From Escherichia coli (GTDB lineage Bacteria; Pseudomonadota; Gammaproteobacteria; Enterobacterales; Enterobacteriaceae): a DNA stretch of 64,000 nt. The first letter of the stretch is position 1, and the number at the start of each line of letters is the position of its first letter. Of this stretch, positions 42,001 through 57,000 are shown piece after piece. A program made the position numbers. The DNA lies in NCBI RefSeq assembly GCF_017348835.2, contig NZ_CP071375.1; one strand, given 5' to 3'.

Positions 42001-45000
42001 GTGTCGGCGCACCACCTGCACGGTTCAGGACAGAAGGCTCACCAATGTCTTTCGCGGTTTGCAGGATCTGCTCTGGCGAAATCACGAAGCCCCAGGAGCT
42101 GACGGTCGCCGCCGCGTGTGCGGTAACGTCTTTCAGCTGCGCCATGATGATCGGCGCGTTCTCGCCACCCATTTCATGCAGGTTAGGCATGGTGATGCCA
42201 AGGCCCGCAGGCGGGGTGTTCATCGCGAAGTAAAGACCCGGTTCGATGATGGACGCTGCAACCAGCGCCATAATCGCCACGAAGGACTCCATCAGCATTG
42301 CGCCGTAGCCAATGAAACGCGCGTCGGTTTCGTTAGCCAGCAGTTTCGGCGTCGTACCGGAAGAGATCAGCGCGTGGAAGCCAGATACCGCACCACAGGC
42401 GATGGTGATGAACAGGAACGGGAACAGAGCGCCTTTCCACAGCGGGCCAGTACCGTCAATGTACTGGGTCATCGCAGGCATTTTCAGTTCCGGGTTCAGC
42501 ACCACGATACCCAACGCTAGGCCGACGATAACGCCGATTTTCAGGAAGGTTGCCAGATAGTCGCGCGGTGCGAGGATCAGCCACACCGGCAGCAGTGCGG
42601 AAACAAACGCATAGCCAATCAGCGCGAAGGTAATGGTGGTGTCTTTAAAGGTCAGTGCCGGACCCCAGTACGGATCGTGAGCAATCACGCCACCGAAGTA
42701 GATAGAGGCAACCAGCAGCACGATACCGATTACAGAGACTTCACCCACACGCCCCGGACGGATAAAGCGCATGTAGATACCCATAAACAGCGCAATCGGT
42801 ACGGTTGAGCAAACGGTGAAGACACCCCACGGACTTTCTGCCAGGGCTTTAACCACAATCAGCGCCAGGACGGCAAGGATGATGATCATGATTAAGAAAC
42901 AGCCAAACAGCGCGATAGTCCCCGGTACTGGTCCCATCTCTTCTTTGATCATCTCACCGAGAGATGCGCCGTTACGGCGAGAGGAGATAAACAGCACCAT
43001 AAAGTCCTGTACCGCACCGGCCAGCACTACCCCCGCCAGCAGCCACAGCGTGCCGGGCAGGTAGCCCATCTGCGCGGCGAGAACCGGACCAACCAGCGGA
43101 CCAGCACCGGCGATAGCGGCGAAGTGGTGACCAAACAACACGTAACGGTTGGTCGGAACGTAGTTCAGACCGTCGTTGTTAATAACCGCAGGCGTCGCGC
43201 GCGTGGGGTCGAGTTTCATCACCTTCTGGGCGATATACAGACTGTAGTAGCGATACGCCACCAGATACACCGACACAGAGGCGACCACGATCCACAGGGC
43301 GCTGACGTGCTCCCCCCGACGTAATGCAACTACCGCGAGGCAGAATGCACCGATGATTCCGAGAATCACCCAGGGTATGTGCTTGAATAGTTTTTTCGTA
43401 TCCATAGTAAAACCTGGCATTTTACTCGTCGTCTTTTGGCTTACAGGTGCGGCAGCTGCGTTCGTTCACCCCTGTCACTTACTGTTATAAGCTCCCGGGG
43501 ATTCACTCACTTGCTGCCTTCCTGCAAACCAAAATCCATAGAGTAATTTGTTAATCATAGGCCGAAGCCGTTCTAGGTTTGCGTTGCGTTTGAGGAGGTA
43601 AATTGACCGCTATCCTGCAGTGATGTTGCCAGAGTTACGCACGCGTAAAGTAAGGTAAATAACTGAGTGGTTATTTTAGGGATGTAAGCGGTCAGGAATG
43701 GCGGTGAGCGGTTGGGTAAGAATTATTCATCGGGTGGATATGTGATTGAGATCACAATAAAAATGCCCCTTCGACGAATGCGTGAAGGGGCTGGAGCTTA
43801 AATCGCAGCTTCCATTTCCAGCATCACCGGATGGAAACGGCGTTTAAAGTAGATAAGTCCGTGACCTTCTGCACTGAGGATGATGTTTTTAATCTCCACC
43901 AGATACACCAGATGTGTGCCAATTGCCTGCACATCGCGGATCTCACCTTCAAGACTGGCCAGCGAACCTTTCAGCACCGGCTGTGCCAGCGGACCTTTTT
44001 GCCAGCATGAGAGGCTAAAACGCTCTTCCATCGCCATGCCTGTCATGCCCGCGAAGTGGCGGGCCATCAGCTCCTGCTCATGATTGAGGACGTTGACGCA
44101 CAACTTACCGTTGCCCTGAAAAACCGGGTTCATCGCACTGTTGGCGTTAATGCACACCATCAGCGACGGTGGTGTATCCGTGACCGAGCAGACAGCCGTT
44201 GCCGTAATCCCGCATTGTCCGGCGTCGCCCTCGGTGGTGATAATATTTACCGCTGCCGACAGGCTGGCCATCGCGTCACGAAAGCGCAGGCGTTGTTCAT
44301 CTAATTGCATCTTAACCTCCTGCTGCGTTATTTCAGCAGCTTATCCAGCATGTTGATATCGTCGTTGTTGTGCAGGTGAGGCACAGTCCAGCCGTTCTGG
44401 TCGTATTCCGACAGGCAGCGATCAACCATCGCCATCATCTTGTCCATATTGCCGGAGCTTTGTGCCTGGCGCAGACACTGCAGGCGAATCTCATCCTGGC
44501 TACCGGAGTAGTTGATTTCATACAGTTCGTGACGACCACCAAACTCGCTGCCAATGGCATCCCACATCAGTTTGAGGATCTTGATGCGCTGGACGTGATC
44601 CATACCGTTCGAACCGCGCACATACTTCGCCAGATACTGGTCGATCTGCGGATTGTTCAGGTCACGGGCACTGGAAGGGAGATAGATCAGGCCACTGGTA
44701 ACGTTGCGTTCGATAATGTTTTTGATCTTCGCGTAGGCCATTGGTGCCAGTACGCGATAGGTTTGTAGTGCGGCATGATCCGGTAAATAAGCCCCGTTGA
44801 CCCACGGCGTCGCTTCAGAACACATCGAGTCACTCAATGCCCAGAAGGTGTTGCGCCACGCCACCACTTCACCGAGATCGGCCTGCACACCACGGAACTC
44901 CAGGGTGCCGGTACATTCGAGTGATTTTTTCAGCAGTGCCGTAATGAAGTCGAGTTTCACTGCCAGGCGCACACAGGCTTGCAGAGGATACATACGGGCG

Positions 45001-54000: not shown

Positions 54001-57000
54001 ATGTACTCTGCCGCATCTTCTTCACGTACTTTCGTCGCCGTTTTTCCCACAATCAGCGCAACAGTCGCACCGCTCAGTACCTTTTCACCCTGTGGAAAGG
54101 GAATCGGTTCACCGCAACCAATCACCGTATTGCGCGGTTTAATAAACCAGACCGCAGTTTTAGGCGGGGCTTTGTAGGGGGATTGCTGGAACGCGTCCTG
54201 CCATGCATCAAGCTGGCTGCGATGGTTCAACGCTACGGCGAAGATAGTGCCTTTCATTACCACTCCTCGGATTCGATCATCTTAATCATTAATATGTTAA
54301 TGATTACTTTTATTCCCGATTGCGTAGTTTGGCAAAAGTAAGTGATGTAAATGTGATCTAATTAACAAACTATTTACATTTAAAGATAATAAAACATTAA
54401 ATATCAGTAAGTTAATAAAATATCATCAATTTTGATAAAATCAGGAATTGAGGGACAGCGCAGTCCCGGTAACGTGACGATTAACTGTTTCTATATTAAT
54501 GATTTTGAATTTTTCAGGGGAAAGATAATGCACGACTCACTAACCATTGCGTTGCTCCAGGCGCGAGAAGCGGCGATGAGTTATTTTCGCCCAATCGTTA
54601 AACGGCATAATTTGACTGAACAACAGTGGCGCATCGTGCGTATTCTGGCGGAAAGCCCATCAATGGATTTTCACGATCTGGCGTATCGCGCCTGCATTTT
54701 GCGCCCAAGCCTGACCGGGATCCTTACGCGGATGGAACGCGACGGTTTAGTGTTGCGATTAAAGCCAATCAATGATCAGCGGAAGCTCTATATCTCGCTA
54801 ACCAAAGAGGGGCAGGCGCTGTATAACCGCGCCCAGACACAGATTGAAGAAGCCTATCGGCAGATTGAAGCTCAGTTTACTGCCGAGAAAATGCAACAGT
54901 TAACCCATCTGTTAGAGGAATTTATTGCTCTGGGCAATTCCCGACAAGAAGACATCCCGGGCGATAATGAATAACTTTTTAGTATCTGATAACCAGCGCC
55001 TGGTTTTTCCATGGATGGCGGGTTACACCTTTTCATAAAGTTTTTGCTTTCCAGGTCGAAAATCTTGCATCGGTCCACAGGAAAGAGAAACCATGTTAAA
55101 ACGTATCAAGATCGTGACCAGCTTACTGCTGGTTTTGGCCGTTTTTGGCCTTTTACAACTGACATCAGGCGGTCTGTTCTTTAATGCCTTAAAGAATGAC
55201 AAAGAAAATTTCACTGTTTTACAAACCATTCGTCAGCAGCAATCCACGCTGAATGGCAGCTGGGTCGCGTTGTTGCAGACGCGTAACACCCTCAACCGCG
55301 CGGGTATCCGCTACATGATGGATCAGAATAATATTGGTAGCGGTTCAACCGTTGCTGAGCTGATGCAGAGTGCCAGTATTTCGCTGAAACAGGCGGAAAA
55401 AAACTGGGCAGATTACGAAGCGTTGCCGCGTGACCCGCGTCAGAGCACCGCCGCAGCGGCAGAGATCAAACGTAATTACGATATTTATCACAATGCGCTG
55501 GCGGAGCTGATCCAACTGTTAGGTGCAGGCAAAATCAACGAGTTCTTTGATCAGCCGACCCAGGGATATCAGGACGGTTTCGAGAAGCAGTATGTGGCTT
55601 ACATAGAGCAAAACGATCGGCTCTATGATATCGCCGTCAGCGATAACAATGCCTCCTACAGCCAGGCGATGTGGATTCTGTTGGGCGTGATGATCGTCGT
55701 ACTGGCGGTCATCTTCGCCGTCTGGTTCGGTATTAAAGCCTCGTTGGTAGCGCCAATGAATCGCCTGATTGACAGCATTCGTCATATTGCAGGCGGCGAT
55801 CTGGTGAAACCGATTGAGGTGGATGGCTCTAATGAGATGGGGCAACTGGCAGAGAGTTTGCGCCATATGCAGGGAGAGCTGATGCGTACCGTCGGTGATG
55901 TGCGCAACGGGGCCAATGCCATCTATAGCGGTGCCAGCGAAATCGCCACCGGCAATAACGATCTCTCTTCGCGCACCGAGCAACAGGCCGCTTCGCTGGA
56001 AGAGACGGCAGCCAGCATGGAGCAACTGACCGCAACGGTGAAACAGAACGCCGAGAATGCGCGCCAGGCCAGCCACCTGGCGTTAAGTGCTTCTGAAACG
56101 GCGCAACGCGGCGGCAAAGTGGTAGATAACGTGGTGCAGACTATGCGTGATATCTCCACCAGTTCGCAGAAAATCGCCGATATTATCAGCGTAATTGACG
56201 GCATTGCCTTCCAGACCAATATTCTGGCTTTGAACGCGGCGGTTGAAGCAGCGCGTGCGGGTGAGCAAGGACGTGGTTTTGCGGTGGTTGCGGGAGAAGT
56301 GCGTAATCTGGCCCAGCGTAGCGCCCAGGCGGCTCGTGAAATTAAAAGCCTGATTGAAGACTCGGTGGGGAAAGTGGATGTTGGCTCTACGCTGGTCGAA
56401 AGCGCCGGGGAAACAATGGCGGAGATTGTCAGTGCCGTGACCCGCGTGACGGACATTATGGGCGAAATAGCTTCTGCTTCTGATGAGCAGAGCCGTGGTA
56501 TCGATCAGGTTGGCTTAGCGGTTGCTGAGATGGACCGGGTAACTCAACAGAACGCCGCGCTGGTGGAAGAATCTGCCGCTGCCGCCGCCGCGCTGGAAGA
56601 GCAGGCCAGTCGCCTGACCGAAGCTGTGGCAGTGTTCCGGATTCAGCAACAGCAGCAACAGCAGCGTGAAACATCGGCTGTGGTAAAAACCGTGACGCCA
56701 GCTACGCCGCGTAAAATGGCAGTGGCAGATAGCGGGGAGAACTGGGAAACGTTTTAATCGCCATAAAAATGCCCGATAAGCAAAATGTTATCGGGCATAG
56801 GGAGTTTAATCTTTACGCGGGTCGTTGATCGGCTGACGAACCAGGAAGATGTACGCCAGTGCTCCCGCTGCGGTGACGCAACCGCAAATGATTAGTGCCA
56901 GACGGAATGAGTGGGTTGTATCAACAATAAAACCAGTAATGATCGGCGCGAAAGAGGCGCAGATGAAGCTGGCAAAGTTCTGGATACTGCCCACCGACGC

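Follow-up and report, generated by a model that had tools for sequence, protein, structure and literature searches.

Is the hpa cluster of Escherichia coli, which encodes the catabolism of 4-hydroxyphenylacetate (4-HPA), an island that was inserted into some strains, or an old part of the chromosome that others have lost? This question is raised by a stretch of 64,000 nucleotides from E. coli contig NZ_CP071375.1 (in the following the window; all coordinates are positions in it), in which eleven hpa genes at 43798-54974 lie between btsT (41255-43405) on one side and tsr (55093-56757) on the other. In K-12 MG1655 btsT and tsr are adjacent, separated by a spacer of 377 bp. A preliminary description of the window had stated that hpa is missing at this site in K-12, which the comparison of the junctions bore out, and had read the cluster as an inserted island, for which we found no support. 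The same order of btsT, hpa and tsr occurs in at least four other genera, mobility genes are missing, and composition and divergence of the cluster resemble those of its flanks. We consider it very probable that the cluster has long been established in the btsT-tsr interval, which it also occupies in other Enterobacteriaceae, and that the alleles of K-12/B2 and O157:H7 strains are later replacements or losses.

Residence of hpa between btsT and tsr

The conservation of the site was assessed by a scan for HpaD in one genome per species, which yielded 382 relatives, and by reading the best 80 loci. Among these 80 loci, both junctions, btsT with hpaC and tsr with hpaR, are conserved in ten species from the genera Pseudocitrobacter, Enterobacter, Lelliottia and Citrobacter. 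Raoultella, Klebsiella and Pseudenterobacter preserve only the junction with btsT; the one with tsr is preserved in Leclercia and in a record labelled E. coli with only 91% identity to the window. The more distant Kluyvera, Salmonella, Serratia, Photorhabdus and Xenorhabdus carry hpa in other contexts. Pseudocitrobacter, Enterobacter, Citrobacter, Lelliottia, Klebsiella and Raoultella share the gene order of the window, often together with the btsT and/or tsr flank, at an overall nucleotide identity of 70–88%. Some species of these genera have a different HpaX type (~70% amino acid identity); Pseudocitrobacter contains an additional 3.4 kb between hpaR and tsr, and some Enterobacter an additional 1.3 kb between hpaC and btsT.

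The divergence of the cluster is similar to that of its neighbors: hpaC, hpaB, hpaA, hpaX and hpaR are 77–88% identical to the closest of these genera, btsT 84–87% and tsr 78–80%. Among E. coli strains, hpa genes diverge by 0–2.3%, as core genes do. The same holds for composition. The cluster has a G+C content (GC) of 54.4% and a GC at third codon positions (GC3) of 0.55–0.72; the corresponding values are 56.3% and 0.70 for btsT, 54.1% and 0.60 for tsr, and 54.2% and 0.67 for yjiA. At the borders of the segment we found no integrase, insertion sequence, tRNA or flanking direct repeats; the only repeats present are of the repetitive extragenic palindromic (REP) and enterobacterial repetitive intergenic consensus (ERIC) types, and the annotation between btsT and tsr lists no genes other than hpa. 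Thus none of the properties by which genomic islands are recognized (mobility genes, tRNA or repeats; a deviating composition; absence from the site in related genera) was found here. Taken together, the synteny in other genera, the lack of mobility features and the flank-like composition and divergence indicate that the adjacency of btsT and tsr in K-12 is most likely the derived state, a loss. A loss of hpa in K-12 has also been suggested in PMC7201708, citing Diaz et al. 2001. Mobility of hpa on plasmids was considered as well and rejected: E. coli-type hpaDE was found only in “plasmid” records of 0.37–4.8 Mb, which we take as chromosomal pieces.

The alignment with the K-12 spacer defines the variable segment. 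Homology extends across the btsT start, is broken by an ERIC element at 43421-43547, resumes at 43548-43711 and is next found from 55032 onwards. Relative to K-12, the segment therefore comprises 43712-55031 (11,320 bp) in the window and a filler of 133 bp in K-12. A CRP-like site lies inside both versions of the segment, near its left edge. One breakpoint is located just past this site on the btsT side, the other just before the tsr promoter. When the 133-bp filler was compared by short-word blastn with the window and the 80 hpa loci, the matches were confined to the CRP-like site and the tsr promoter. About 87 bp of the K-12/B2-type filler (8510-8596 in the extracted K-12 locus, L002) are without match in hpa-positive loci. 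Breakpoints and filler are the same in K-12 and a B2-like strain, suggesting that the empty allele arose once.

Of 5426 complete genomes of E. coli, 2072 carry the hpa cluster (hpaDE) and 2752 the K-12-type junction with the 133-bp filler, so that the use of the cluster as a strain marker, as previously proposed, is supported. A third allele, mostly of O157:H7 strains, is present in 363 genomes, and ~240 show some other state of the btsT-tsr interval. In O157:H7 ECP19-198 this third allele is an AT-rich cassette of ~0.8 kb (9065-9886 of extracted locus L091) encoding a hypothetical protein of 180 aa, WP_000934391.1. The 180-aa open reading frame (ORF) had no Pfam match above threshold; only a sub-threshold match to a TnsA-like N-terminal domain (E = 0.068) was obtained. 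All three alleles retain the CRP-like site and the tsr promoter element. Since the O157:H7 cassette is unrelated to the other two alleles, the site is multi-allelic and does not follow a simple presence/absence pattern. A more far-reaching proposal would be that the btsT-tsr spacer is a hotspot of replacement, with at least three unrelated cassettes swapped between the CRP-like site and the tsr promoter, and that in addition an exchange of the meta-cleavage operon between Escherichia and Pseudocitrobacter left two hpaF alleles behind. In this combined form we regard it as a tentative and rather doubtful idea, although the underlying observations are real.

Several points weigh against the reading as a functional cluster that has simply been resident and was lost elsewhere. 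Only one Escherichia label occurs among the 80 best HpaD loci, and most representatives of Escherichia species, that of E. coli included, seem to be without hpaD. Loss would thus have to be frequent, or the cluster was regained by homologous recombination. Further, since the filler is unmatched in hpa-positive loci apart from the CRP-like site, the presumed deletion is not a clean excision. One part of the meta-cleavage operon also resembles Pseudocitrobacter more closely than the rest of the cluster does. In the hpaG/hpaR spacer a single C is missing at 54450/54451, after position 54450, in comparison to every other strain examined (PE164, W, IAI1 and O145), which may be a strain-specific mutation or a sequencing error. 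Finally, the function of the cluster in this strain is a prediction from its genes.

Probable exchange within the meta-cleavage operon

Two alleles of hpaF, with 80% nucleotide and 84% amino acid identity, exist in E. coli. Between the window and E. coli W the divergent stretch comprises hpaF and its 3’ spacer (~50236-50625). The W/IAI1-type allele is found in ~985 of ~2065 hpa-positive genomes and the type of the window in the rest, corresponding to a roughly equal frequency. Carriers of the window type include O145 RM11626 and E. coli B REL606. The HpaF accession WP_001119872.1 is common to PE164 and REL606, and the hpaF region of PE164 shows no difference to that of the window. HpaF of E. 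coli C, known from PDB entry 1OTG, is of the W type and clearly divergent from HpaF of the window, differing at many positions. We had considered the hpaF of the window as an uncharacterised allele, but this was rejected because REL606 grows on 4-HPA with the same HpaF protein; B strains with window-type HpaF grow on 4-HPA (PMC7201708), and the allele is therefore functional.

The similarity to Pseudocitrobacter extends over a block of ~5.2 kb (~48505-53755), reaching from hpaI through the 3’ two-thirds of hpaG. Here E. coli is 91–99% identical to Pseudocitrobacter vendiensis and 85–96% to P. faecalis; outside the block, in the remaining hpa genes and in btsT and tsr, the identity to Pseudocitrobacter is 58–92%. 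On its left, the block begins at the REP cluster between hpaX and hpaI. In W-type strains hpaF belongs to the block: the W-type allele is 93–98% identical to hpaF of Pseudocitrobacter. These identities indicate an exchange between genera within the operon, for which the donor may be Escherichia or Pseudocitrobacter. Inheritance of the cluster is therefore not purely vertical. The outer hpa genes and the borders are unaffected by the exchange, however, so that it does not rescue the reading as an inserted island.

The block raises the alternative that the cluster was lost early in Escherichia and regained, wholly or partly, by homologous recombination via btsT and tsr from a syntenic enterobacterium. 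Apart from the Pseudocitrobacter-like identities of the block and of W-type hpaF, this alternative finds support in one locus (L007), whose hpa genes are 94–96% identical to the window, yet its tsr only 89% and its lgoT/lgoR 83–84%. On the other hand, none of the genes hpaC, hpaB, hpaA, hpaX and hpaR is unusually similar to any of the genera sampled, the exchange with Pseudocitrobacter may run from Escherichia outward, and the variability of the hpa genes within E. coli is that of core genes. We therefore judge an early loss with subsequent regain to be unlikely.

A recent island, which an ancestor of the W/B/C-type strains would have acquired horizontally in its btsT-tsr spacer, with K-12 representing the original empty site, appears very improbable. 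Consistent with it, 62% of the complete E. coli genomes are without the cluster, the empty allele occurs in both K-12 and B2-like strains, most representatives of Escherichia species are not among the hpaD matches in the best 80 of the 382 loci, and the GC of the cluster exceeds that of the rest of the window (49.4%). Yet the higher GC and the GC3 are the same in the neighbors btsT, tsr and yjiA, the cluster has the same flanking genes in four or more other genera, the divergence from these genera equals that of the flanks and the borders are free of mobility features. In addition, the empty allele has its own 133 bp, which are missing in the occupied allele, and does not represent a simple pre-insertion site.

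Gene content and predicted function

As regards the cluster itself, its description as a complete set of eleven hpa genes was exact with respect to both limits: an ORF listing and translation showed all eleven genes to be intact and without internal stops (Table 1). Ten genes are located on the minus strand in the order hpaC-B-A-X-I-H-F-D-E-G, with hpaR divergent on the plus strand. The protein lengths are those annotated in E. coli W, B and IAI1, and all eleven proteins score above the curated cut-offs of their NCBIfam equivalog models. This supports the roles assigned before (hydroxylase hpaBC, activator hpaA, permease hpaX, meta-cleavage genes hpaGEDFHI and repressor hpaR) and speaks against the possibility that the ORFs are not hpa homologues. 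RefSeq gives the same eleven gene names between btsT and tsr in E. coli PE164, which is 99.99% identical to the window, with 2 single-nucleotide polymorphisms and 2 single-base indels over 60 kb. The cluster is also compact as described, about 93% of it being coding. However, “several” overlapping stop/start junctions were an overstatement: with accepted start codons the sole overlap is that of the hpaG stop with the hpaE start (ATGA, 4 nt, 52968-52971), and the additional ones had resulted from reading maximal ORFs. The gap between hpaE and hpaD is 1 nt; the other gaps range from 9 to 250 nt.

Table 1. Coordinates of the hpa genes and associated sequence features in the window.
Feature	Position	Strand	Description	Basis
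hpaC	43798-44310	-	NADH:flavin reductase of 4-HPA 3-monooxygenase, 170 aa	NF012030, 385.6 bits (cut-off 315)
hpaB	44328-45890	-	oxygenase of 4-HPA 3-monooxygenase, 520 aa	TIGR02310, 1106 bits (cut-off 885)
hpaA	46141-47031	-	AraC/XylS-type activator of hpaBC, 296 aa	TIGR02297, 386.7 bits (cut-off 274.65)
hpaX	47041-48417	-	4-HPA permease of the major facilitator superfamily, 458 aa	TIGR02332, 894 bits (cut-off 615.4)
hpaI	48592-49380	-	4-hydroxy-2-oxoheptanedioate aldolase, 262 aa	TIGR02311, 433.8 bits (cut-off 368.8)
hpaH	49391-50194	-	2-oxohept-4-ene-1,7-dioate hydratase, 267 aa	TIGR02312, 464.7 bits (cut-off 351.5)
hpaF	50262-50642	-	5-carboxymethyl-2-hydroxymuconate isomerase (CHMI), 126 aa, E. 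coli B-type allele	NF011605, 263.5 bits (cut-off 215)
hpaD	50652-51503	-	3,4-dihydroxyphenylacetate 2,3-dioxygenase, 283 aa	TIGR02298, 546.8 bits (cut-off 315.95)
hpaE	51505-52971	-	5-carboxymethyl-2-hydroxymuconate semialdehyde (CHMS) dehydrogenase, 488 aa	TIGR02299, 739.3 bits (cut-off 638.35)
hpaG	52968-54257	-	bifunctional 5-oxopent-3-ene-1,2,5-tricarboxylate (OPET) decarboxylase / 2-hydroxyhepta-2,4-diene-1,7-dioate (HHDD) isomerase, 429 aa	NF011750, 976.7 bits (cut-off 811)
hpaR	54528-54974	+	MarR-type repressor of the meta-cleavage operon, 148 aa	TIGR02337, 201.1 bits (cut-off 121.2)
ERIC element (intergenic repeat unit, IRU)	43421-43547		127 bp; 15 bp upstream of the btsT start codon, outside the hpa segment	
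CRP-like site	43741-43756		TGTGA-N6-TCACA; btsT side, left edge of the variable segment	
Hairpin followed by U-run	43765-43791	-	3’ of the hpaC stop	folding: minimum free energy -18 kcal/mol, z-score -3.9, 0/200 shuffles fold as well
hpaB-hpaA spacer	45891-46140		250 bp; expected seat of the HpaA-dependent hpaBC promoter	position; HpaA control (PMC7180172)
REP cluster, three units	48463-48495, 48514-48547, 48562-48590	+, +, -	in the 174-bp hpaX/hpaI gap	sequence and inverted repeats
Degenerate REP	50214-50245		in the hpaH/hpaF gap	
hpaG/hpaR control region	54258-54527		divergent, 270 bp, AT-rich; TTAA-rich palindromes at 54282-54306 and 54478-54504	
tsr promoter-like element	55036-55062	+	TAAAGTTT-N11-GTCGAAAA; immediately right of the variable segment	

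The closest described system is the cluster hpaRGEDFHIXABC of E. coli W (ATCC 11105; GenBank Z37980, Prieto et al. 1996 as cited in PMC7180172). It consists of the same eleven genes and shares with the window the flanks btsT and tsr as well as the wider neighborhood yjiS-pac-yjiA-yjiX-btsT-hpa-tsr-lgoT. Gene order, orientation and junction lengths are the same in E. coli W, B REL606, IAI1 and O145, apart from two spacers: the hpaH-hpaF spacer is 43 bp shorter in W than in the window, and the hpaX-hpaI spacer measures 123 bp in REL606 versus 174 bp in the window, reflecting a REP cluster of different length. With the exception of hpaF and its 3’ spacer, the W segment is 97–98% identical to the window. 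HpaC, HpaE, HpaH, HpaR and HpaX are identical to the W proteins; HpaC (WP_001175455.1) is shared by W, B and IAI1, HpaR (WP_000543916.1) by W, B, IAI1 and O145, and HpaX corresponds to WP_001285769.1 of W. E. coli B (REL606/BL21) has the same organisation at the same site. The cluster had been called typical of W/B/C-type strains. For W and B this is supported by the same cluster at the same site, whereas for C it is based on a statement in the literature and on the protein of PDB 1OTG, the structure of its CHMI. The hpc genes of E. coli C encode the same homoprotocatechuate meta-cleavage pathway, and HpaR has been reported to be identical to HpcR of E. coli C (PMC7180172). More distant is Yersinia pseudotuberculosis, which has a single operon hpaG1G2EDFHIXBC without hpaA and with a split hpaG (PMC7180172), in contrast to the window, where hpaA is present and hpaG is a single, bifunctional gene.

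Pathway and regulation have been described for E. coli W, C and B (PMC7201708 and PMC7180172). While we established the gene identities from sequence, the biochemistry is carried over from the published E. coli W/C system. Accordingly, HpaX would import 4-HPA or 3-hydroxyphenylacetate (3-HPA), which HpaB together with the flavin reductase HpaC would hydroxylate to 3,4-dihydroxyphenylacetate (homoprotocatechuate). HpaD would open the ring by extradiol cleavage, and HpaE, HpaF, HpaG, HpaH and HpaI would turn the cleavage product into pyruvate and succinic semialdehyde. HpaA would activate hpaBC, and HpaR would repress hpaGEDFHI as well as its own gene until inducer is present. The substrate range depends on HpaB: with Arg379, growth is possible on 3-HPA in addition to 4-HPA, and BL21 with Arg379 uses 3-HPA while REL606 with Cys379 uses only 4-HPA (PMC7201708). 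Residue 379 of HpaB in the window is Arg, as in BL21(DE3). From the eleven intact genes and this residue, growth of the strain on both 4-HPA and 3-HPA is predicted.

That the cluster is present but silent or mis-regulated through the single-base deletion in the hpaG/hpaR control region is highly improbable: the C of AATTG[C]AGGGAC is missing only in the window, yet its position is outside the two conserved TTAA palindromes and outside every coding sequence, the deletion may be a sequencing error, and all hpa genes are intact. Overall we regard the cluster as a known system that had been identified correctly; it is complete and probably functional.

Control sequences, repeats and neighboring loci

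Conservation of the hpaG/hpaR spacer amounts to 98%, and an alignment of the five strains (window, W, IAI1, O145 and PE164) shows no variation in either TTAA palindrome. In Y. pseudotuberculosis HpaR represses the meta-cleavage operon via TTAA-N4-TTAA sites, described as similar to E. coli W (PMC7180172). The two palindromes fit such a site and we infer that they are candidate HpaR operators. A scan for promoter and terminator consensus sequences (43300-55200) gave 8 promoter-like and 11 terminator-like sites, which does not exceed the numbers obtained with shuffled sequence. It did not include the hairpin downstream of hpaC because the loop of this structure is too long; folding revealed it, and it is likely the hpaBC terminator. 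A site comparable to the CRP-like site occurs in the alleles of K-12, B2-like and O157:H7 strains as well as upstream of btsT in two Klebsiella loci; a function in CRP binding would be suggested by the motif. On the other side of the segment, the element TAAAGTTT-N11-GTCGAAAA is kept upstream of tsr in all three alleles of the interval. We presume that it resembles the sigma-28 consensus, making it a candidate tsr promoter.

The REP cluster that had been noted at one internal junction is real. Its three units separate the hpaXA/hpaBC half from the meta-cleavage operon, and the middle unit is an exact match to the REP pattern, none being expected by chance. The ERIC element upstream of btsT contains matches to the two classical ERIC primers, with 3 mismatches to each of them, where again none is expected by chance. 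It is missing in K-12 and the B2-like strain. The btsT-hpaC spacer of 392 bp is of equal length in IAI1, O145, W and REL606, and these strains therefore probably carry the ERIC element too.

Outside of the cluster, the window contains a penicillin G acylase gene, pac (37416-39957, plus strand), which is frameshifted by one extra G near 39055-39064. The frameshift splits pac into two ORFs (37416-39098 and 38992-39957), whereas PE164 and E. coli W have an intact gene. Strains A29 and 19-7 carry the same allele of 2542 bp, annotated there as a frameshifted pseudogene; it is therefore a real, recurrent allele. Altogether, pac is present in 1074 of the 5426 complete genomes. It occupies the region between yjiS and yjiA (~36900-40030), where K-12, REL606 and B2-like strains have mrr-hsdRMS (and mcrBC), located beside yjiA in REL606. 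In O157:H7 this slot contains a different type I system and an HNH endonuclease. The differing content between yjiS and yjiA indicates that this “immigration control” slot is also multi-allelic. Downstream of tsr (56806-58167 and beyond) lgoT is found in the window, K-12, W, IAI1 and REL606, and a tripartite ATP-independent periplasmic (TRAP) transporter and a Na+/H+ antiporter in B2-like strains and O145 RM11626. In PE164, yjiR (~35310-36724) and fimA (8244-8782) are annotated as frameshifted pseudogenes (window coordinates converted from the PE164 record). As the window equals PE164 at both genes, it shares both frameshifts.

Both the hpa system and the proposal of its loss in K-12 are already known from the literature. 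The practical value of the present finding is small: the cluster predicts the use of 4-HPA and 3-HPA, aromatics that the cited literature connects with the breakdown of lignin and describes as being degraded by most enterics, and it marks the strain as non-K-12 and W/B-like at this locus. For population genomics, the multiple alleles found between btsT and tsr and the intergeneric exchange within the operon are modest observations. The textbook statement that K-12 lacks hpa would, however, result from loss or replacement of the cluster in K-12, as in numerous other lineages, and not from a gain in the strain analyzed here. This direction matters whenever presence or absence at the site is used to infer horizontal acquisition.

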